This document shows, in pieces, positions 10,871-39,431 of a stretch of DNA of 39,431 nucleotides. Within the stretch, counting starts at the first letter, position 1, and every line of letters starts with the position of its first letter. Location of the stretch: the NCBI GenBank assembly GCA_031414955.1, contig JANOQV010000241.1, positions 1 to 39,431 on the forward strand, read 5' to 3'. This stretch comes from Pedosphaera sp. (GTDB lineage: Bacteria; Verrucomicrobiota; Verrucomicrobiia; Limisphaerales; SIBH01). Below the pieces are notes generated by a model, which had not been told where the DNA came from, ran no database searches, and saw only the letters and a program-made list of their open reading frames with translations. Made by a program: the position numbers and the translations under genes.

Positions 10871-13800
10871 TCAAGGTGCCGCCAGCCGGTAGAAGCGCGT
10901 CCCGTTGGTAGTAGGATCGGTGATGACGATGGTTCGCACCGTCGGTGCGGAAGCCACATTGGTCATTGGCAACCAGGTCAACGCCGTGAGCGTATCCTTG
11001 AACTGCACGGTGAAGGTGCGGTTCGAGGCCGCTGTGAATTCAAACTCCACCCCGCCGCCGGTCGCACTGATGCGCTCCACATGCAGGCGGCTGGCCGGAT
11101 TGTTCGGGTGCGTGCCGGCGAGATACTCCTGCCCGTTCGTGAAGCCGTCACTGTCGTTGTCATCGTTCGCGTCGGGCGTGCCGACCAGCGTGCCGTTGGC
11201 GATTTCCCACGCGTCGGGCAATCCGTCGCCGTCGCTGTCCACGTCGGCGTTCTCGCGGCCCGGCGTCGCGGTCGCGGCCTGCCAGTTGATCGGGTCGTCG
11301 CCATATTGATTTGAAAACTTGCGCTGGAGGGAAGGACCGCTTCCATCCGCCGCCGCCGGCCACGGCGCCTTGTCGTTGTAACGCACCGAGTCCACGACGA
11401 TGTAAGGCGTGCCGTTCGTGTCCGGCGCGTCGGGGCGCGTGAGCGAGAGGCGCTCGCCGCTGCCCTGCAACGAGCCGAGAAAATCGTAGGTGAAGATCGG
11501 CACGTTCACCGGCACCGAGTGGTTCGCGCGAAAGCCAGTGACGTTGCTGATCACGACAAGGACGAGTCCGCCGGGCGGCACGGTGAGGTTCGTCGGAAAA
11601 GTGAAGCCCACGCCTTCGAGCTTCCAGGTATTCGCCGGGAACGCCGCGTGGAACAGCGGCACGTTGGTCGCGCTGATGTTCTTCAATTCCACGAACGCAT
11701 CTTGTGGCATCACGGGATGGTAGTGAATCTCGTTGATGACGAGCGGCCCGACGCGCGGGCCGGAGTTGGTGGCGTTGAAAGTCGGGGAGATTTGCGCCGG
11801 GAACTGTTCCTCGCCCACGCTGTTGAGGTGGCGGCCAAAGGTCACGCCGTTCGCCGCCGCGCTGAAGCTGAAGCCGTGCGACCAGCCGGTGAGATTCGTG
11901 TTCGCATCACCGGAGAAAAGATAGACGAACTCGCCGCTGGAACTGAGTGAGAAGCTGTCGTTCGTGCCGGGAGTGGCGTTGAACTGCGTTTCGTCGAAAG
12001 TCAGGAAGCCGCCCGCGGTGATCGTCATGCCGTTGGGGATGCGATACTTCTTCAGCCGGCCGGATTCGTCCGTCAGGAACCAGCCGCCCACATCCACATT
12101 GGTCGCGGCGAGGTTGTGGATTTCAATGCGGTCCACCGCCGGCAGATCGGTGTGCGTGAGCACTTCGTTGACGACGACGGGGGCGATGAACGGCGCGGGA
12201 TCGTCCGCGCCGGGCGAACCGCCGCTGAACGTGCTGGCCCGCCACTTCGCGCCGTCGTCCGGGGCCTGGAACGTGCCGGGGAGCAATGGGACGAGCGAAA
12301 AGCCATGACCGTCCGGCGTCACCGGCCACGGCGCAGTGGTGCCGTAGGTGAGCGAAAGAATGGTCGGGCCGTAGGGCGGGCCGCCCGCCGCCTGCTGCGA
12401 GAGCGTGATCGTCTCCCCGTCGTTGGCGAGCTGTCCGGTGAAGAAGCCGTCCGCCGTCACGCCGGGATACTTCGCGTTGAACGGAATCCCGCTGCGCGCG
12501 AGGACGAAGAACTGGCCCGGCCCGAGCAGCGTGCCGTTGGTGAAGTTGAACGTGAAGCCGTCGGTGAACCCGCAGCCGGTCAGATCGAGAGCGTTCGTGC
12601 CGTAGTTTTTCAACTCGAGGAACTCCAGATCGCTGCTGCCAAAAGGCGCGAGCGCAGGCGGGCGGTACATGATTTCCGTCAAGGCCAGCTTCGAAAAATC
12701 CTGCGGTGGAAAGAACGTGGCCTCGGCCAGCGCGCTCCAGTTGCCGCCGCCAAGCACGCGCGAACGCACGAGCGTTGGCGCGTTGATCGGCACCGGCGTT
12801 GCGAACGCCTGCGCGCCCGCCGCGACCGCGCCGCTGCCATACACGCGCGGGTCGCTGCCGTCGGTGGTGAAGTAAATCGTCCCGCCGACATTCGTGTGCG
12901 TGATGGTGAGGGAGAAGCCTGCCGTTACGCTGCCGCCGAACTGGCTGAACACGGGAGCGCCGACGAGCGGATACAAATTGCCGGCTTGGAAGCGGGCCAC
13001 GTTGTCCGCCGTGAGCTTCTGGAAAAAGTTCGTCAGCGTTTTGTCGAGTTCCGGCCGCCACCATTCGTTGCGCGTGAAAGTATTGCTCGTGCCGATCTGC
13101 CCGGCGGGCACGCCGATCTTGCGCGCGTCACCCCAGCGCGCGGACTCGCCCACGAGGGCGTTGGTCAGTCCCGTGGACGCGGCGAGCAGGCGCGCGGCGT
13201 TCGCGGCCGGCGTGAGCGCGCCGCCGTTGAAGAGATGCTTATGAACGCGGTCGGCGAAGCGCAGGCGGAATTCCGGCCAGTTGCGGCACTGGAAGTAAAG
13301 ACGCGCGGGGCTGTATTGCTCGCCTGCGCCGCCGCCGTTGTTGCCCGCGTCAATGCGGTTGCGACGCACCAGCCGGTCGAGCACCAGCTCTTGATCCCAC
13401 ACGGCGAAGATAAATTTTGTGCCCGCCACGCCGTTCGTCGCGCGGCGGTGCGCGCCGTACCAGTTGTGTCGCGGCCAGTCCTCGGACTCAGCGACGATGT
13501 GGAGCATCATGTAGTCAATGAGGTTGTCCACATCCACGGCGTTGGTGATCGCGGCGTAGGCGGACTCGCTGGCGATGGGCGACGCGGCGAGCGCGAGCAC
13601 GGCGTTCCAGTCCGTGAGCGAGCCGTCCACGAGCACGGTCGGGCCGTTGTTGTCCTCGCCCACCACCACATCCCACGCGCCCTCGTCGCCGCCGAGATGC
13701 TGGCTGAAGTAATACGCGCCGTAGCGTTCCGAAGGGAAGTAGAGGCCCCAATACAAACCGTTGAGATAAAGATGCGCGAACGCGCTGCGGCTCGAAATCC

Positions 13801-16312
13801 AGCCCATGTCGCGGAAAGATCCCTTCACCCACACGTCGCGCAGGTAGAGCGTGTTCTCGGGACGATAGCGCAAGCCACGGAACTGCTCGCCGGTCTCGCT
13901 GCTGGTATAAATTGTGTTGTCCGCATAGCGACCAGCCCAGCCGTCCACGAAGCCCGCCGAGCGCAGGATGATCGCGTCGTGCGTTTTCACGCCGCCGCCG
14001 AACCAGTCGTAGTCGAGCTTGGTCGGGCCGTAGTCGCTGTTGAAGTTGAGCCGCATGGAATGCTTCGGCGTGCGGGCGTTGTCGCGGCTGGCGTTGCCGT
14101 GCATTTCCATCTTCGCCGTCGTGGCAAACTCGGTGCCGCCGTCGCCCGCGATCAATTCCGCCGAGGCTGCGCGTTCCCACGCCGCGCCGCTGCTGGTCGC
14201 GTTCGGGTAAATGCCGGTCGAGGAATTCCACAGGCCATCCTGGCCCGACACGAGCATCAGGCTCGGAATGCTCCGCAGATCGTTGCTGATGGTCGCGCCA
14301 TAGACGACGTGGTTCACGATGTTTGAGTCCATCGCGTAGTCGGCGGTGTAGGCGGCCTGCCAGAGCGTCGGGTAGCCGGGGATGTTGTTCGACTGACGCA
14401 GCACATCGGTCATGAAAATGTAGCTGTGCGTGTCCACGCCGCTCGGCACCCAGCCCGCCAGATACGCGGCGGCACGGATGAAACTGTTTCCCGTGATGCT
14501 GATGGGCGCGGTGTGCAGGAAGCCGTTGGTCGGCGCGGGCGCGCTGCCGTTCGTCGTGTAATAAATGCTGGCGCCGGCCGTGGCGCAGGTGATGGAGAGC
14601 GAGAAGGGCGCGTCGAAGAAGCCGCGGTCCACACTGAACTTGGTGTCGGCCACCACGCCGTAAAGCGCGGCACTGTTCGACGTGCCGGGCGTCACGGGTG
14701 CGAAGAAGCCGTTGGTGATCGGCTGCAAGCTGGCGATGAGCTGCGGCTCGATAAAAAAGTCCGAGTCACCCGCGGCGATGTTCAACGCCTGCACCGCGAG
14801 AATGTTGGTGCCACCGACCAGCAGTCCGGGAGCCGCGGGCAAAATGATGTCCTCGGCCACGGCGGACGAGTTGGTGGCGGTGGCGGCGGAGTCCCACGCG
14901 GGTGTAAGCGGGGCGTTGCGACGCGCGACCTCGGTGCCGTTGAGGTAGGCGATGAAGCCGTCATTGTACTTCACGCGCAAGGTGACCTGCGCCACCAGAG
15001 CGGGAGTGGAGACAATGAACGACTGCCGCGCGTAGAGCGTGGAGTTTAGGCCGGCTAGTGCAGTGGCGTTGCCGTTCGTGGCCGGCAGCAGGACGGCGGG
15101 CGTGACCTGAATCGCATTCAGGAAAACCCCGAAGGAAGCGATGGGTGTCGGGGCGGAGGCGTCCACGCTGGCCGGGTTGCGCCGGCCGCGAACCACCACG
15201 AGACCGTCCGCGTCCGACGTGGCGTCGAAGGTGAAGTTGTACTGGGCGTCGCTGGTCGGAAGCACCGTGCCGTTGAAGGCGTAGCCGTTGGTGGCCACCA
15301 CGCCATTGGCCGACCAGTCGGAGACACGGTTGCCTCCGCTGCCGCTGTCGTACGACCAGACAGTCAGGCGATGGAGCGCATTCGAGGCCAGGCCCGCCAG
15401 TGTGATGTCCAGTCCGCCGGTGGTGTTCAAATCCTGGGAGAAGACGAAATCGCGCAGCAACGGCGCGTTGGTGCCCCCGGCCGAATCCACCGGCGTGCCG
15501 CGCAGCCGATCATTGTAACCGAAGGGCAGGGTGTTCGACAGCGTGACGGAATAAGCGCCGTACGTTCGCACCGTCGCCTGAGTTTGCACGGCGGTGACAC
15601 TGACATTGGAGTTGATGACGAAAGGCTGAAAGCCCGCCAGCGTGTTGGTGGGGAAGTTGGAATTGCGCCGGTTGAAATCCACGCTCAGGAGCGCCGCCCC
15701 GGCCGGCGCGCTGAACAGGCCCACGTCGTAGCGCAGGGGCATGAGAGCGCTGCTCCAGGAAGAGTCATCGAATCCGGGCGCAGTCCAGGTCGCGCCGGGC
15801 GCGTCGCTCACTGGCACGAGCCAGCGCGTCGCGCCACCAGCGGCGAGGAGCGTGACCACGGCGCCGTTCGTGGTGCCGGGGCCGTAACTGACGTTGCGGT
15901 GTTGCTGCGGGTAATTGAACTCGCTGGCGATGACGCTGTTCGAGTCCACGAGGGCCAGATAGCCGCCGCCGTTCTGCAACTGGAAGTTGGCGTGCAACTG
16001 CGCGCCGTTGGTCGCGCGATCCTTGCCCGAGGCGAAGACGATCAGGTAGCCGCCGGCGGACAGATTGGTGGCGGGAAAAGCCCACTTGGCCAGGTTGGTC
16101 GGATTGTCCGTGAGCCGCCAGCCCTCAAGGCTGACCGCCAGCACGCTGGTGTTGCGCAGTTCGATCCAGTCCGGCGTGTCGCCGTCCTGATCGATCAGCC
16201 CGCCGTCGTTCTCGGCCAGGAATTCAGAAATGATGATGGTGGCGGCCCGGCTGCTTTGACCGAAGGCGAAAAGAGACAGGCATAGGGCGAGAATGTGACA
16301 GCTTTGGCGCAT
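10871..16312 (-). CDS. Secreted CotH-kinase / lamin-tail-domain protein with Fn3-associated and TSP3-like repeats
   Basis: Signal peptide from ATG 16312. Four LTD-like starts (ISEF..DWIEL, TEIMY..EFLEL, NEVL..RIEI, NEIHY..FVEL). CotH motifs HGNASR, KHSMRL, LYLNGLYWGLY, DWPRHNW, WDQE. DSDGDGLPDAWE repeat. C-terminal RFYRL. Confidence 0.9.
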   Translation of the reverse strand: MRQSCHILALCLSLFAFGQSSRAATIIISEFLAENDGGLIDQDGDTPDWIELRNTSVLAVSLEGWRLTDNPTNLAKWAFPATNLSAGGYLIVFASGKDRATNGAQLHANFQLQNGGGYLALVDSNSVIASEFNYPQQHRNVSYGPGTTNGAVVTLLAAGGATRWLVPVSDAPGATWTAPGFDDSSWSSALMPLRYDVGLFSAPAGAALLSVDFNRRNSNFPTNTLAGFQPFVINSNVSVTAVQTQATVRTYGAYSVTLSNTLPFGYNDRLRGTPVDSAGGTNAPLLRDFVFSQDLNTTGGLDITLAGLASNALHRLTVWSYDSGSGGNRVSDWSANGVVATNGYAFNGTVLPTSDAQYNFTFDATSDADGLVVVRGRRNPASVDASAPTPIASFGVFLNAIQVTPAVLLPATNGNATALAGLNSTLYARQSFIVSTPALVAQVTLRVKYNDGFIAYLNGTEVARRNAPLTPAWDSAATATNSSAVAEDIILPAAPGLLVGGTNILAVQALNIAAGDSDFFIEPQLIASLQPITNGFFAPVTPGTSNSAALYGVVADTKFSVDRGFFDAPFSLSITCATAGASIYYTTNGSAPAPTNGFLHTAPISITGNSFIRAAAYLAGWVPSGVDTHSYIFMTDVLRQSNNIPGYPTLWQAAYTADYAMDSNIVNHVVYGATISNDLRSIPSLMLVSGQDGLWNSSTGIYPNATSSGAAWERAASAELIAGDGGTEFATTAKMEMHGNASRDNARTPKHSMRLNFNSDYGPTKLDYDWFGGGVKTHDAIILRSAGFVDGWAGRYADNTIYTSSETGEQFRGLRYRPENTLYLRDVWVKGSFRDMGWISSRSAFAHLYLNGLYWGLYFPSERYGAYYFSQHLGGDEGAWDVVVGEDNNGPTVLVDGSLTDWNAVLALAASPIASESAYAAITNAVDVDNLIDYMMLHIVAESEDWPRHNWYGAHRRATNGVAGTKFIFAVWDQELVLDRLVRRNRIDAGNNGGGAGEQYSPARLYFQCRNWPEFRLRFADRVHKHLFNGGALTPAANAARLLAASTGLTNALVGESARWGDARKIGVPAGQIGTSNTFTRNEWWRPELDKTLTNFFQKLTADNVARFQAGNLYPLVGAPVFSQFGGSVTAGFSLTITHTNVGGTIYFTTDGSDPRVYGSGAVAAGAQAFATPVPINAPTLVRSRVLGGGNWSALAEATFFPPQDFSKLALTEIMYRPPALAPFGSSDLEFLELKNYGTNALDLTGCGFTDGFTFNFTNGTLLGPGQFFVLARSGIPFNAKYPGVTADGFFTGQLANDGETITLSQQAAGGPPYGPTILSLTYGTTAPWPVTPDGHGFSLVPLLPGTFQAPDDGAKWRASTFSGGSPGADDPAPFIAPVVVNEVLTHTDLPAVDRIEIHNLAATNVDVGGWFLTDESGRLKKYRIPNGMTITAGGFLTFDETQFNATPGTNDSFSLSSSGEFVYLFSGDANTNLTGWSHGFSFSAAANGVTFGRHLNSVGEEQFPAQISPTFNATNSGPRVGPLVINEIHYHPVMPQDAFVELKNISATNVPLFHAAFPANTWKLEGVGFTFPTNLTVPPGGLVLVVISNVTGFRANHSVPVNVPIFTYDFLGSLQGSGERLSLTRPDAPDTNGTPYIVVDSVRYNDKAPWPAAADGSGPSLQRKFSNQYGDDPINWQAATATPGRENADVDSDGDGLPDAWEIANGTLVGTPDANDDNDSDGFTNGQEYLAGTHPNNPASRLHVERISATGGGVEFEFTAASNRTFTVQFKDTLTALTWLPMTNVASAPTVRTIVITDPTTNGTRFYRLAAP

Positions 16313-16405
16313 AAATATTTGGGATGGCCGAAAGCTACTACACCGGCAGGCGTTCTTACAACACAACGCTACGGGCAACAGGCTGAAGGTGTCTGCCCGG
16401 ATTCG

Positions 16406-17845
16406 CTAGGCGACGATGCCCTTCACCAAATCACCGGCGATGCCTGTCAGCCGTGCGTCGAGCCCCTGGAACTTCACCGTCAGCCGCTTGTGATCGATGC
16501 CGAGCAGGCGGAGCATCGTGGCGTGCAGGTCGTGGACGCTCACCACGTCTTCGACGGAGCGGTAGCCCAGCTCGTCGGTGTTGCCGAACATCGTGCCGGC
16601 CTTCACGCCGCCGCCGGCCAGGAAGACGGAGAAGGCGAGAATGTGATGGTCGCGCCCGCTGCCCTGGCTCATGGGCGTCCGCCCAAACTCGCCGCCCCAC
16701 AGGATGAGCGTGTCGTCGAGCAGGCCGCGCTGCTTCAAGTCCTTGATGAGCGCGGCGCTCGCCTGATCCGTGGCCTTCGCGGCCTTGGGCATTTCCTTCT
16801 CGATGTCGCCGTGATGATCCCACGCGCGGTGATAAAGCTGAATCATCCGCACGCCGCGCTCGGCGAGTCGGCGGGCCATGAGGCAGTTCGAGGCGAAGCT
16901 GCCGTCGCCCGGCTCCTTCACGCCGTACATTTCCAGCATCTCCTTCGGCTCGTTCTTGAAGTCCGTCAGTTCCGGCACGGAACTTTGCATGCGGAACGCG
17001 AGTTCGTACTGCGCGATGCGCGTCTGGATTTCCGGGTCGATGTGGTCCTCGGCCAGAATGCCGTTGAGGCGGTTGATTTCCTCGACGACCTGACGCTGCG
17101 TGCTCTGGCAGACGCCTTCGGGATTGCCGATGTAATGCACCGCGTCGCCCTTCGACTGAAATTGAATCCCTTGAAATTTGCTCGGCAGAATCCCGCTCGA
17201 CCATTGCCGCGCCGACACCGGCTGTGCGCCCGAACTGCCCTGCGACGTGAACACGACGAAGCCCGGCAGGTTGTCCGTCTCCGCGCCGAGTCCGTAGAGC
17301 AGCCACGAACCCATGCTGGGCCGGCCCTTGATGATCGAGCCGGTGTTCATGAAGGCGTGCGCCGGGTCGTGGTTGATCTGCTCCGTCTGCATCGACTTGA
17401 TCACGCACAGTTCGTCCGCCACTTCCTGCAAGTGCGGGAACAGGTTCGAGATCGAGATGCCCGACTTGCCGCACGGCTTGAATTCCGTGAACGCGCCGCG
17501 CGCCTTCAACTCTGTGTTCTGCAACTGCGCGAGCTGTTGTCCTTTGGTGAACGATTCGGGAAACGCCTTGCCATCAAGCTTCTTCAACTCCGGCTTCCAG
17601 TCGAACGTCTCCAGATGCGAAGGCCCGCCCGCCATGCAGAGGTGGATGACGCGCTTGGCCTTGGGCGCGAAGTGCAACGGGTTCAACACGCCGCGCCATT
17701 TGCCGGGAGCGGCTGGCTCGGCGGCGAAAATTCTTGGGTCCATCAGGCCGGCCAGCGCGAGTCCGCCGAGACCGTAGGCGGAGCGGCGCAGGAAGGTGCG
17801 GCGGTTGACGGAGAGGGCGAACTTTTGCAGGTCGAAGGGTTTCAT
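16406..17845 (-). CDS. DUF1501 protein (alkaline-phosphatase/sulfatase superfamily), Tat-exported
   Basis: NRRTFL Tat motif, KAKRVIHLCMAGGPSHLETFDWKP, WDHH, GEFGRTP, GRDH, HDLHAT. Start at ATG 17845; the upstream extension is translated repeat DNA. Confidence 0.93.
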   Translation of the reverse strand: MKPFDLQKFALSVNRRTFLRRSAYGLGGLALAGLMDPRIFAAEPAAPGKWRGVLNPLHFAPKAKRVIHLCMAGGPSHLETFDWKPELKKLDGKAFPESFTKGQQLAQLQNTELKARGAFTEFKPCGKSGISISNLFPHLQEVADELCVIKSMQTEQINHDPAHAFMNTGSIIKGRPSMGSWLLYGLGAETDNLPGFVVFTSQGSSGAQPVSARQWSSGILPSKFQGIQFQSKGDAVHYIGNPEGVCQSTQRQVVEEINRLNGILAEDHIDPEIQTRIAQYELAFRMQSSVPELTDFKNEPKEMLEMYGVKEPGDGSFASNCLMARRLAERGVRMIQLYHRAWDHHGDIEKEMPKAAKATDQASAALIKDLKQRGLLDDTLILWGGEFGRTPMSQGSGRDHHILAFSVFLAGGGVKAGTMFGNTDELGYRSVEDVVSVHDLHATMLRLLGIDHKRLTVKFQGLDARLTGIAGDLVKGIVA

Positions 17846-17867
17846 GGTGAGGAGGGCGGAGGGGGAA

Positions 17868-17922
17868 AAGATCCAAGAACCAAGCACCAAGCTCCAGAGA
17901 AACACCAAGCACCAAGATCCAA
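17868..17922 (+). repeat. 55-bp heptamer module A (inverted relative to B and C)
   Basis: AAGATCC AAGAACC AAGCACC AAGCTCC AGAGAAACACC AAGCACC AAGATCC AA. Confidence 0.9.
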
Positions 17923-17957
17923 CCAGCGTCCGGAGACGCTCGCACGTCCGCCGCATA

Positions 17958-18012
17958 TTGGAGCTTGGCGTTTGGATCTTCTCTGGAGCTTGGCTCTTGG
18001 AGCTTGGAGCTT
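17958..18012 (-). repeat. 55-bp heptamer module B
   Basis: Minus strand reads AAGCTCC AAGCTCC AAGAGCC AAGCTCC AGAGAAGATCC AAACGCC AAGCTCC AA. Two more degenerate units extend to about 18026. Confidence 0.9.
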
Positions 18013-18025
18013 CATTCTTGGTTCT

Positions 18026-18532
18026 TCATTTTCGGTACATGCTGGCAAAGATGAGCAGCAACTCGTTGGCCTCGCGATACAGCTCCCTCGCCTCCGGTGC
18101 GAGCTTCGGTTCTGACGCCGCCACCATGCGCAGGAAGAAGCGCGTTTCCTTCGCCTCCTTCACGCAGCGGCTGATGGGATGACGGAAATCCTTTTTGGAG
18201 ACGCCTTCGTTGGCCTCGCAGTAGTTGGCCCCGATGCTCGTGCTGCAACCGACCAGTTGATCCACCAGCCGGTTGTTTTCCGGAAAGCTGACGCCGCGCG
18301 GAATTTTTTTCACGAACCGGATGACGCGTTCGCCGAACCGCGCCGCGCGCTCCTCCAAGTCAAATGGATGAAGCGATGCCTTCCTCGGCGGCTCGTCCTT
18401 CAAGATCAGCCCGTTCAAGCTCTCCTCTGGCACACTCTTGATCGAATGCCATCCTTCCGACAGCGACACCGGTTGGTTCTTGGAGCTTGGAACTTCTCTG
18501 GTGCTTGGATCTTGGAGCTTGGATCTTTTCAT
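18026..18532 (-). CDS. Four-helix-bundle protein (23S rRNA IVP / bAvd-like family)
   Basis: DLEER..F, QLVGCSTSIGANYCEANEGVSKKDF, KEAKETRFFL, EANELLLIF. ATG 18532 lies just after the DUF1553 stop. The N-terminus is encoded by heptamer module C. Confidence 0.88.
   Translation of the reverse strand: MKRSKLQDPSTREVPSSKNQPVSLSEGWHSIKSVPEESLNGLILKDEPPRKASLHPFDLEERAARFGERVIRFVKKIPRGVSFPENNRLVDQLVGCSTSIGANYCEANEGVSKKDFRHPISRCVKEAKETRFFLRMVAASEPKLAPEARELYREANELLLIFASMYRK
18473..18527 (-). repeat. 55-bp heptamer module C (inside the 5' end of the four-helix-bundle gene)
   Basis: Minus strand reads AAGATCC AAGCTCC AAGATCC AAGCACC AGAGAAGTTCC AAGCTCC AAGAACC AA. Confidence 0.9.
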
Positions 18533-18534
18533 CT

Positions 18535-21702
<3,168 letters not shown>

Positions 21703-37838: not shown

Positions 37839-37844
37839 GCGTTT

Positions 37845-38129
37845 GAACCGCGAGGCCGGAAAGCCTCGCCACCTGCCGACAGAAATGTCGGCGCCACGGT
37901 AATGGCCCATCATCGTAACGCCGGCTTTCCAGCCGGCAGGTAACGAGACTTTCCAGTCTCGTGCTCCTCCTGTGTTGTTCAGGTTGGAGTGTTGAGAGAG
38001 CCATTTGGAACGGGAGGATCGAAAGCCTCCCTACCTGCCGACAGGAATGTCGGCGCTACGGCGGTGGCCCGCTGTCGTAACGCCGGCTTTCCAGCCGGCA
38101 GGTGGCGACACTTTCCAGTGTCGCAGTTC
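37845..38129. repeat. Four double-hairpin REPs upstream of RAYT
   Basis: Copies at 37845-37898 (-), 37914-37966 (+), 38008-38060 (-), 38076-38129 (+). Consensus CGT(A/G)(A/G)C-GCCG(A/G)C-loop-G(T/C)CGGC-AGGT-second hairpin-GTTC. Confidence 0.9.
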
Positions 38130-38184
38130 CTCGCTTTTCATTTTCAACTCGACTGGCCCAGCACCGCGCGGATACCTCCACTCC

Positions 38185-38868
38185 ATGACTCCTCCCAGTC
38201 ACCGCATCGCCGGCCGTTACACGCGTGGCTATCTGCCCCACGTCCGACTGGAGGGCCGGCGCTACTTCGTCACCTTCCGGCTGGATGGCACTTTGCCGCA
38301 GGACGTGCTGGAAAATTTCCAGCGCGAACGTGAGGAGTTGATGCGCCAAGCGGATCGCGAAGGGCACCAGCTTTCCTGGGAGGAACAGAAGCGCCTCTTT
38401 GAACTCTACTCGGAGCGCATTGAATCCTACCTCGACGCCGGACACGGCGACTGCTGGCTGAAAGAGCCGCGGGTCGCCGAGATTGTTGCGAACGCGCTCC
38501 GCTTCTTCGTGAATTCACGTTACGCGCTCGGTGCCTTGGTGGTGATGCCGAATCATGTCCATGTTCTCGTGCGTCCGCTCGGTGAACACACGCTGGATTC
38601 CATCTTGAAAAGCTGGAAGGGCTTCACTGCGCGCGAGGCAAACAAGATTCTTGACCGCACCGGCGGACCTTTCTGGGCGCACGAATACTACGACCACTGG
38701 CTGCGCGACGAAGACGAGAAGGAGCGGTTCACGGCCTACGTGCATGACAATCCCGTCAAGGCGGGTTTGTGCGCGAGGCCGGAGGACTGGGTGTGGAGTT
38801 CGGCGCATCCGCGTTGGGCGCGCGGGGTTGGAACGGGAGGTTCGAAAACCTCCCTACCTGCCGACTGA
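38185..38868 (+). mobile_element. rayT: REP-associated tyrosine transposase (Y1 HUH, RAYT / TnpA-REP)
   Basis: GYLPH, YFVTFRL, VVMPNHVHVL (HUH), FW..EYYDH, YVHDNPVKAGL, WVWSSA. Flanked on both sides by REPs. Confidence 0.9.
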
Positions 38869-38937
38869 AAGTCGGCGTTACGACGTAGCGCCGACATTCT
38901 TGTCGGCAGGTTGCGAGACTTTCGAGTCTCGCAGTTC
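38831..38937. repeat. Two double-hairpin REPs downstream of RAYT
   Basis: 38831-38882 (-) overlaps the RAYT stop codon. 38884-38937 (+) reads CGTAGCGCCGACATTCTTGTCGGCAGGTTGCGAGACTTTCGAGTCTCGCAGTTC. Confidence 0.9.
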
Positions 38938-38987
38938 TTCGCACTGAATGTTTGAACCCCAATCACTCGTCTGAAATTCTCACAACT

Positions 38988-39431
38988 ATGAATCGCATCA
39001 CCTTGCTCCTCGCGGCGCTGTTTCCGTTGCTGTCCTTCGCTGCCGCGCCCGCGCAGCCCTTCGAGCTGCGCGAGGGCGACCGCGTGGTCTTCCTCGGCGA
39101 CACGCTCATGGAGCGGGAGAAGGATTATGGCTACATCGAGCTGATGATGACGCTGCGGTTCCCGGACCGGAACGTCACCTTCCGCAACCTGGGCTGGAGC
39201 GCGGATACGCCGGTGGGGATTTCGCGCGTGAGCTTCGACTGGCCGAAGGGCGAGGGCGAAATGTTCCGCCAGCTCATGGAGCAGGTCAAACAGGTGCAGC
39301 CCACGGTCGTGGTGCTGGGCTACGGCATGGCGAGTTCGCTGGAGGATGCGGCGGCGACGGAAATGGAACGGCTGGGAGCGCCGGCGTCCTCGCCGGCTTT
39401 TGACTCACGCACGCGCAAAGCCGGCGAGGAC
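38988..39431 (+). CDS. Secreted SGNH/GDSL-like domain protein, 5' part only (runs off the window; absent from the ORF track)
   Basis: Open frame of 148 codons: MNRITLLLAALFPLLSFA...GDRVVFLGDT...FRNLGWSADT...PTVVVLGYGM. Confidence 0.85.
   Translation, partial: MNRITLLLAALFPLLSFAAAPAQPFELREGDRVVFLGDTLMEREKDYGYIELMMTLRFPDRNVTFRNLGWSADTPVGISRVSFDWPKGEGEMFRQLMEQVKQVQPTVVVLGYGMASSLEDAAATEMERLGAPASSPAFDSRTRKAGED
39375..39431. repeat. GGAG-type REP doublet inside the coding frame (truncated by the window edge)
   Basis: GGAG-CGCCGGCGTCCTCGCCGGC. Segment 39386-39400 is the exact reverse complement of 39417-39431. Confidence 0.8.

Follow-up and report, generated by a model that had tools for sequence, protein, structure and literature searches.

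To our knowledge no function has been assigned to the large family of PF05635/TIGR02436 proteins, and we know of neither an origin nor a binding partner for the heptamer arrays that are abundant in bacteria. In Coxiella burnetii's S23p intervening sequence (IVS), heptamers lie upstream of an ORF of this four-helix-bundle (FHB) family, and RNase III is described as cutting at the first heptamer (PMC4990558). Mycobacterial MIRUs are short, apparently mobile repeats which, according to a review, are coupled to their neighbors by a -4 overlap that makes the insert harmless to the next gene (PMC12548453). The genomes of Xanthomonas and Nostoc each carry 70-75 convergent heptamer pairs, located between aligned ORFs at no more than 50 bp from a stop or start codon (PMC4692102); the word 'helix' is absent from the available main text of that report. 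Heptamer repeats upstream of start codons have also been described elsewhere, with the FHB family unnamed and with no mention of a four-helix bundle in the available text (PMC4679880). FHB genes themselves are reported inside cas loci (PMC3936711) and beside DGRs (PMC10053308), and the text at hand on ProPhylo (PMC3226654) mentions neither repeats, helix nor heptamers. Within the searched literature, which consisted of main texts with few subscription journals, we found no description of FHB cassettes joined with genome-wide hairpins, and the system reported here seems to be undescribed there, though it is built from known kinds of parts.

The window, a stretch of 39,431 nucleotides from Pedosphaera sp. 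that lies on contig C241 of the genome (G000), contains an FHB ORF of 168 amino acids (18026-18532, minus strand; TIGR02436, PF05635) between a gene for a PSCyt1/DUF1549/DUF1553 (PSD1) protein upstream (18535-21702, minus strand; PF07587/PF07583/PF07635) and a DUF1501 gene downstream (16406-17845, minus strand; PF07394). Three 55-nt modules accompany it. On the mRNA, module C (18473-18527, minus strand) is the forward arm, module A (17868-17922, plus strand) is the reverse arm, and module B (17958-18012, minus strand) is an additional forward arm, making up with A a complete local hairpin across a 35-nt spacer (17923-17957), which has a weak internal hairpin and no second match among those listed for the genome. 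These coordinates agree with the order given in the original prediction (C, gene, B, a 35-nt spacer with a small hairpin, inverted A), and each module indeed has the shared design claimed there, namely four heptamers, a linker and two heptamers, with one deviating unit in B that reads AAA rather than AAG. B and C are direct repeats identical at 47 of 55 positions (85%), A being inverted relative to both, and the predicted duplex energies are -73.3 kcal/mol for B:A and -74.5 kcal/mol for C:A, the latter having 46 predicted pairs that form a stem around the FHB ORF. The modules had been thought to bound the gene; C instead lies inside the ORF, whose start is at 18532, and takes up about codons 2-20. 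As the FHB start is only 2 nt past the stop of the DUF1553 gene, module C is read in frame as the N-terminus of the protein. A 975-nt contig of run X1, possibly the source sample, backs the assembly, spanning 17880-18854 with zero differences and at the depth of its neighbors. The cassette had been proposed to split a normally adjacent DUF1553-DUF1501 pair and to be transposase-free, and both proposals hold: in seven same-genus genomes the flanking genes lie 4-8 nt apart, and the cassette encodes no transposase. A search for a cognate enzyme in the Y1 family recovered 12 matches in the genome, none less than 3 kb from a module locus. One of the Y1 matches, IS200/RAYT-like, lies in the window at 38515-38748 within a segment (37840-39000) that has repeated palindromes on both sides; it looks like a REPtron unrelated to the modules. 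At the locus a sigma-70-like promoter is absent, terminator-like matches are close to the level of chance, and an Rfam scan near it returned nothing close to threshold. An in-frame run of a related heptamer is present inside the DUF1553 gene (19296-19316), and a large lamin-tail-domain/CotH kinase protein is encoded directly downstream of DUF1501 (10871-16378).

As in the Coxiella S23p IVS, the same protein family is encoded within a terminal stem, with tandem heptamers of variable number just upstream (PMC4990558). The kinship with IVSs that had been suggested for this locus has a precedent in an element with both heptamers and RNase III cleavage. Unlike that IVS, the present insert sits at an mRNA junction between protein-coding genes rather than in 23S rRNA, is built of structured 55-nt modules, has one arm more as well as a relay ORF, and is accompanied by about 100 gene-less sister hairpins elsewhere in the genome. 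With the MIRUs it shares the placement of repeats at start codons and an ORF inside the repeats that is linked to the genes on either side through short overlaps (PMC12548453), a likeness of layout; it departs from them in its inverted heptamer arrays, unique spacers and linked protein family. The convergent heptamer pairs of Xanthomonas and Nostoc likewise lie between co-oriented ORFs near stops and starts; they have been interpreted as G-quadruplexes, whereas the AAG-type units of the three modules have only GG, and no run of three or more G, on their G-rich strand (PMC4692102). The DGR accessory protein Avd (4DWL) shares the fold (PMC10053308), but there is neither a reverse transcriptase nor a template/variable repeat here, the two reverse transcriptase genes of the genome being on contigs C267 and C8. 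Like REP/REPIN and MITE elements, the hairpins are non-autonomous, palindromic and of high copy number (PMC3733652). In contrast to REP/REPIN, this locus lacks GTAG- or CGTC-tagged ends, and the REP-like pattern of the genome is unmatched on the locus contig; in contrast to both REPs and MITEs, the junction hairpins shun convergent gene ends and occur without identical copies. Terminal inverted repeats are present as in MITEs, with near-identical copies only in a REP-borne subset. We consider it somewhat more probable than all rival views taken together that the locus is one gene-bearing representative of a family of heptamer-armed elements, transposase-free and polarity-neutral, that occupy stop/start junctions within operons; its core cassette would consist of the forward arm C, the FHB gene and the reverse arm A.

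The FHB ORF scores 55.2 bits against TIGR02436 (cut-off 24) and 40 bits against PF05635 (cut-off 33.8), and matches PDB 2RLD by sequence (E 2.6e-6). A single-sequence structure prediction (mean pLDDT 65.5) has four helices and divides the protein into a low-confidence leader of about 55 residues, which is the translated module C followed by a linker, and a four-helix core of 113 residues. Foldseek searches with this model recovered 2RLD as the top hit (E 2.4e-4), followed by 2GSC and Avd (4DWL), the fold being that of BT_0352 and Xcc0516. The core contains an SxxxNxxE motif that is present in 84 of 87 homologues, and the closest relatives of the protein are mostly Verrucomicrobiota records. 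The association of such arms with this family beyond the window, as originally predicted, is borne out by inverted arms at 83 of 87 homologous loci (by score, among loci with enough flank, those with short flanks having been dropped).

The three-module layout, which had been taken as the design of the element, is present at only one of the four FHB genes found in the genome; on inspection the inverted arms of the other three are short and differ in word, and none of these genes has a third arm. Close homologues are also mostly two-armed: among 70 armed loci with at least 55% identity (our own locus and three unarmed loci excluded), B occurs in 15, of which 14 were called by score and one (L062) was assigned by eye, three partial copies being left uncounted. 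B is in the locus's own word in every case, including the 8-nt word in genome G017, as seen by a score that is blind to a foreign B. Several homologous loci have tandem reverse arms, as would be expected if a hairpin had landed behind the FHB stop. At L062, where full hairpins lie on both sides of the FHB gene, and at L079 and L080, a full or partial reverse arm is also found upstream of the gene, whose start thus sits behind a hairpin. The original prediction that A can pair with either B or C stands insofar as both duplexes are feasible in prediction. Its extension to a switch, in which A pairs alternately with C (RNA excision of the gene, as in an IVS) or with B, or in which C-B recombination excises a circle, is the explanation we consider least probable. 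The near-equal stability of the two duplexes would suit it, as would a preference of 6.6 kcal/mol for C:A in naked-RNA folding, the recurrence of the three-arm layout across several heptamer types and the IVS precedent (PMC4990558). Yet about three quarters of the armed homologues, as well as a cassette at the same site in genome G009, do without B, and C itself lies in coding frame, which would place it under translating ribosomes while B:A remains local. On the protein tree the distribution of B is scattered, requiring 12 changes against 14.1 in shuffled data (a weak tree from a short alignment). Moreover, the frame produced by an in-register C-B deletion was computed to run 146 nt into DUF1501 out of frame, with loss of coupling, and neither a C-B nor a whole-cassette skip was present among the best 15 of 150 joints in four DNA runs, whose contigs drop rare variants. 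An mRNA cut in the manner of IVS excision without religation would also separate the cistrons of the operon. An apparent skip of 17920-18499 was rejected since the spacer in it belongs to a hairpin elsewhere in the genome. These observations lend no support to a programmed C:A/B:A switch, and we read B as a recurrent optional state of the cassette. In terms of the junction-element family that we favor, B would be a secondary arm that makes the FHB/DUF1501 junction a complete hairpin like the gene-less ones, and might have arisen through insertion of a hairpin with later collapse of two reverse arms, or through an arm being copied locally. The similarity of B to its own C or A does not clearly exceed that to the arms of other loci, and comparisons of an origin from C or from A (29.0 vs 26.8; 26.9 vs 27.4) have no power to separate the two.

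A genome scan recovered 268 modules at 153 loci in 6.5 Mb, against none in 3 Mb of second-order Markov sequence; the strict module design is matched by 20 copies and a relaxed one by 63, with FHB genes numbering only four. The commonest layout is a gene-less inverted pair of the B-spacer-A type, with 98 instances. Of the 94 pairs that could be placed between two called genes, 83 have co-oriented neighbors, 10 divergent and just one convergent neighbors (p ~1e-4 against long intergenic regions); the genes come from a simple purpose-written caller whose start sites are approximate. About 20 module loci genome-wide were flagged inside called genes. The spacers of the hairpins are mostly unique, and when those of at least 20 nt were used as queries 27 of 98 had another genomic match, many of these being REP-borne copies or short chance matches; in this the junction hairpins are unlike recent MITE bursts. 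A derivation of the gene-less hairpins from FHB cassettes by deletion was considered and rejected, as no spacer matches a cassette except in heptamer remnants or short chance matches. Additional hairpin types in the genome use other 7- and 8-nt words, and several of them have no matching FHB gene in the assembly. A separate set of 30 of the 153 module loci rides inside near-identical REP-like elements. These REPIN-like carriers have short GC-rich inverted ends with a CGTC-like tag (e.g. C19:15453-15570, C89:8626-8783 and C30:3519-3639), and their near-identical copies group into four subfamilies (23, 5, 3 and 3 members) with no Y1 transposase alongside. At C159:72695-74825 gene-less hairpins occupy three junctions in succession within a single operon, most congeners being empty there.

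It appears that ribosomes can traverse the entire insert and reach DUF1501 by way of short reading frames that overlap. The FHB stop overlaps by ATGA a five-codon relay ORF, MKNQE (18012-18029, minus strand), which looks like a partial duplicate of the start of B; this in turn overlaps by ATGA a 57-codon bridge ORF (17842-18015, minus strand) that extends over B, the spacer and A, its end sharing a further ATGA with the DUF1501 start. Ahead of that start there is a pyrimidine-rich stretch and no obvious Shine-Dalgarno site. Gene-less hairpins were examined for the same arrangement in a set of 65 co-oriented pairs whose arm starts at most 45 nt from the upstream stop, with the study locus left out; 53 of them have an ATG within 60 nt after the arm. 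Coupling was scored when the bridge ORF ends -8 to +11 nt from the next start or is fused to it. A bridge ORF spans 47 of the 53 hairpins and is coupled in 44, numbers that drop to 6 and 21 coupled hairpins when 1 or 2 nt, respectively, are deleted from the spacer. Exact ATGA overlaps occur in 23 of the 53 against 2 and 2 in these frameshift controls (Fisher p 1.4e-6). When the hairpins are inverted in place 33 remain coupled, indicating that length and frame are constrained and orientation is not. The upstream stops are RTGA in 47 of 65 cases compared with 32% genome-wide. ATGA at the downstream start (30/53) equals the background of 54%. The frame is also conserved across genomes, with 15 of 16 scorable filled junctions of congeners coupled (controls 5 and 11), and in 52 of 58 FHB homologues the frame of the gene stays open across the upstream arm, as opposed to 17 and 15 for the other two frames. 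Downstream of FHB genes the coupling test gave no separation from its controls (10/15 vs 8 and 5; 24/38 vs 21 and 26). Translation through the relay and bridge ORFs is inferred from these frames. In the proposed family of junction elements, ribosomes would reinitiate at the overlapping stop and start codons, run through the arms and melt the hairpins, whereby the insert would not be polar on DUF1501, as described for MIRUs. The system offers a measured case of selection for translational relay over inserted hairpins, in which frame and arms are conserved and the spacer is free.

Occupancy of these junctions is patchy and their occupants turn over between related genomes. The seven same-genus genomes with a closed DUF1553/DUF1501 junction provide the empty sites that were anticipated in relatives, and the cassette is missing in 7 of 9 congeners with an orthologous junction, a count that includes this genome. 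The empty sites are only 75-90% identical, and at this level of identity no clear target-site duplication was seen. In G009 the DUF1553/DUF1501 junction holds an FHB gene whose two arms are built from a related word. The FHB protein of the window is nearer to copies in another operon (78-80%) than to that of G009 (58%); replacement of the cassette from another locus was considered and set aside, as a quick tree did not reject a same-junction clade. Comparison of seven hairpin junctions across congeners yielded 30 comparisons without a scored hairpin, 16 with one and four that were unscorable. For example, the junction at C185:13023-13151 (L171-L189), followed in 11 genomes, holds several different heptamer words or, in two genomes, an empty ATGA overlap, and its bridge frame is kept in all seven scored hairpins. 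Some of its words are one or two changes apart and have a common leader, which makes both drift and replacement likely. At C104:588-692 (L060), where the flanking proteins are 97-98% identical, G007 has a three-armed FHB cassette and this genome a different, gene-less 8-mer hairpin. At two junctions a single ATGA overlap in the empty state becomes ATGA on both sides in the filled one, but ATGA at downstream starts is no commoner than background. In one orthologous hairpin shared by this genome and G007, the arms are 84% and 88% identical and the spacer of equal length 46%, between flanking genes that are 89-90% identical; this single case points to constraint or homogenization acting on the arms.

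Such conservation of arms over a drifting spacer would be expected of a host-domesticated network, in which FHB binds, or RNase III cuts, the hairpins at about 100 junctions, thereby tuning mRNA stability and downstream translation, with B-A as an autoregulatory site. Variable positions, as parsed in 38 of the 98 hairpins, agree better between the arms of one hairpin (49%) than between hairpins of the same type (25%), G-U pairs are in slight excess on the mRNA strand (243 vs 190), and the Coxiella IVS is cut by RNase III at its first heptamer (PMC4990558), all of which would be in keeping with such a role. However, the G-U excess lacks significance when counted by element (32 vs 23, p 0.28) and is not seen in the FHB cassettes (92 vs 92), and a regulatory site would hardly be expected to be occupied so patchily, to swap hairpin type among congeners, or to be missing with the cassette from most orthologous junctions. 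We therefore regard this network as an unlikely explanation, albeit one to be taken seriously.

The relation between the FHB protein and the type of repeat was approached at two levels. On a quick tree, of the kind also used for the scatter of B and the origin of the cassette, arm type tracks protein clade with 6 changes against 24.9 in shuffled data. This shows that gene and arms travel together; it says nothing of the protein reading the arms. Across 41 incomplete and related genomes, in which matches to four array patterns were summed, a sum of at least 30 was reached by 9 of the 10 genomes that have a close FHB homologue, by 6 of the 19 whose FHB matches are all distant and by 0 of the 12 that have none. 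The two genomes in which an AAG-armed FHB gene was seen rank first and second for AAG arrays. Several genomes are array-rich with only a distant FHB match (among them G008 with 224 and G004 with 166), and in G040, which has a close homologue, none of the four patterns is matched. Related genomes are not independent, and hence both the clade and the genome correlations may be due to plain co-inheritance. The persistence of arrays in genomes without a close FHB match would fit a purely mutational origin, whereby slippage and fold-back template switching create and homogenize hairpins, selection removes the polar ones, and FHB is a passenger. Agreement between units is higher inside an arm (57%), and between the two arms of a hairpin, than from one hairpin to another, and at one junction the heptamer types make up a series with steps of one or two changes, as would suit such an origin. 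It does not readily account for inverted arms at four of four FHB genes here (by inspection) and at nearly all the scored homologous loci, for a fixed design of 4 + linker + 2-3 heptamers at dozens of unrelated sites, or for the want of array-rich genomes among those lacking any FHB match, and we consider it rather improbable.

The locus ties the FHB family to heptamer arrays and supplies candidate ligands in the form of module RNA or ssDNA, with natural controls in other clades that use other words and with about 100 target sites in one genome. Returning to the family of junction elements, the same-family protein Xcc0516 is a homopentamer (PMC4990558, PMC10053308), and we suggest that the FHB protein, as a probable pentameric ring, probably binds the arms, putatively by way of their 7-nt periodicity in RNA or ssDNA, and that, together with host enzymes, it may maintain or spread the cassette and its gene-less derivatives. 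Both are weaker suggestions than the reinitiation of ribosomes. A bolder version, which we advance as a doubtful but attractive possibility, casts FHB proteins as the driving component of a class of mobile elements so far undescribed. Here FHB, with a clade-specific 7-nt word and aided by a polymerase or reverse transcriptase of the host, in the manner of Avd in DGRs, would write or insert paired arms at stop/start junctions in operons that are translated; the gene-less hairpins and B would be its products, made tolerable by the relay ORFs. If this were true, FHB-written arms would also explain the heptamer arrays of Xanthomonas, cyanobacteria and other groups. As to the genomic surroundings of the close FHB homologues, the commonest downstream neighbor (33 loci; L032, L061-L111) has its best match in one protein of this genome, which we take to resemble an aldehyde dehydrogenase, and the DUF1553/DUF1501 junction is their second common site.
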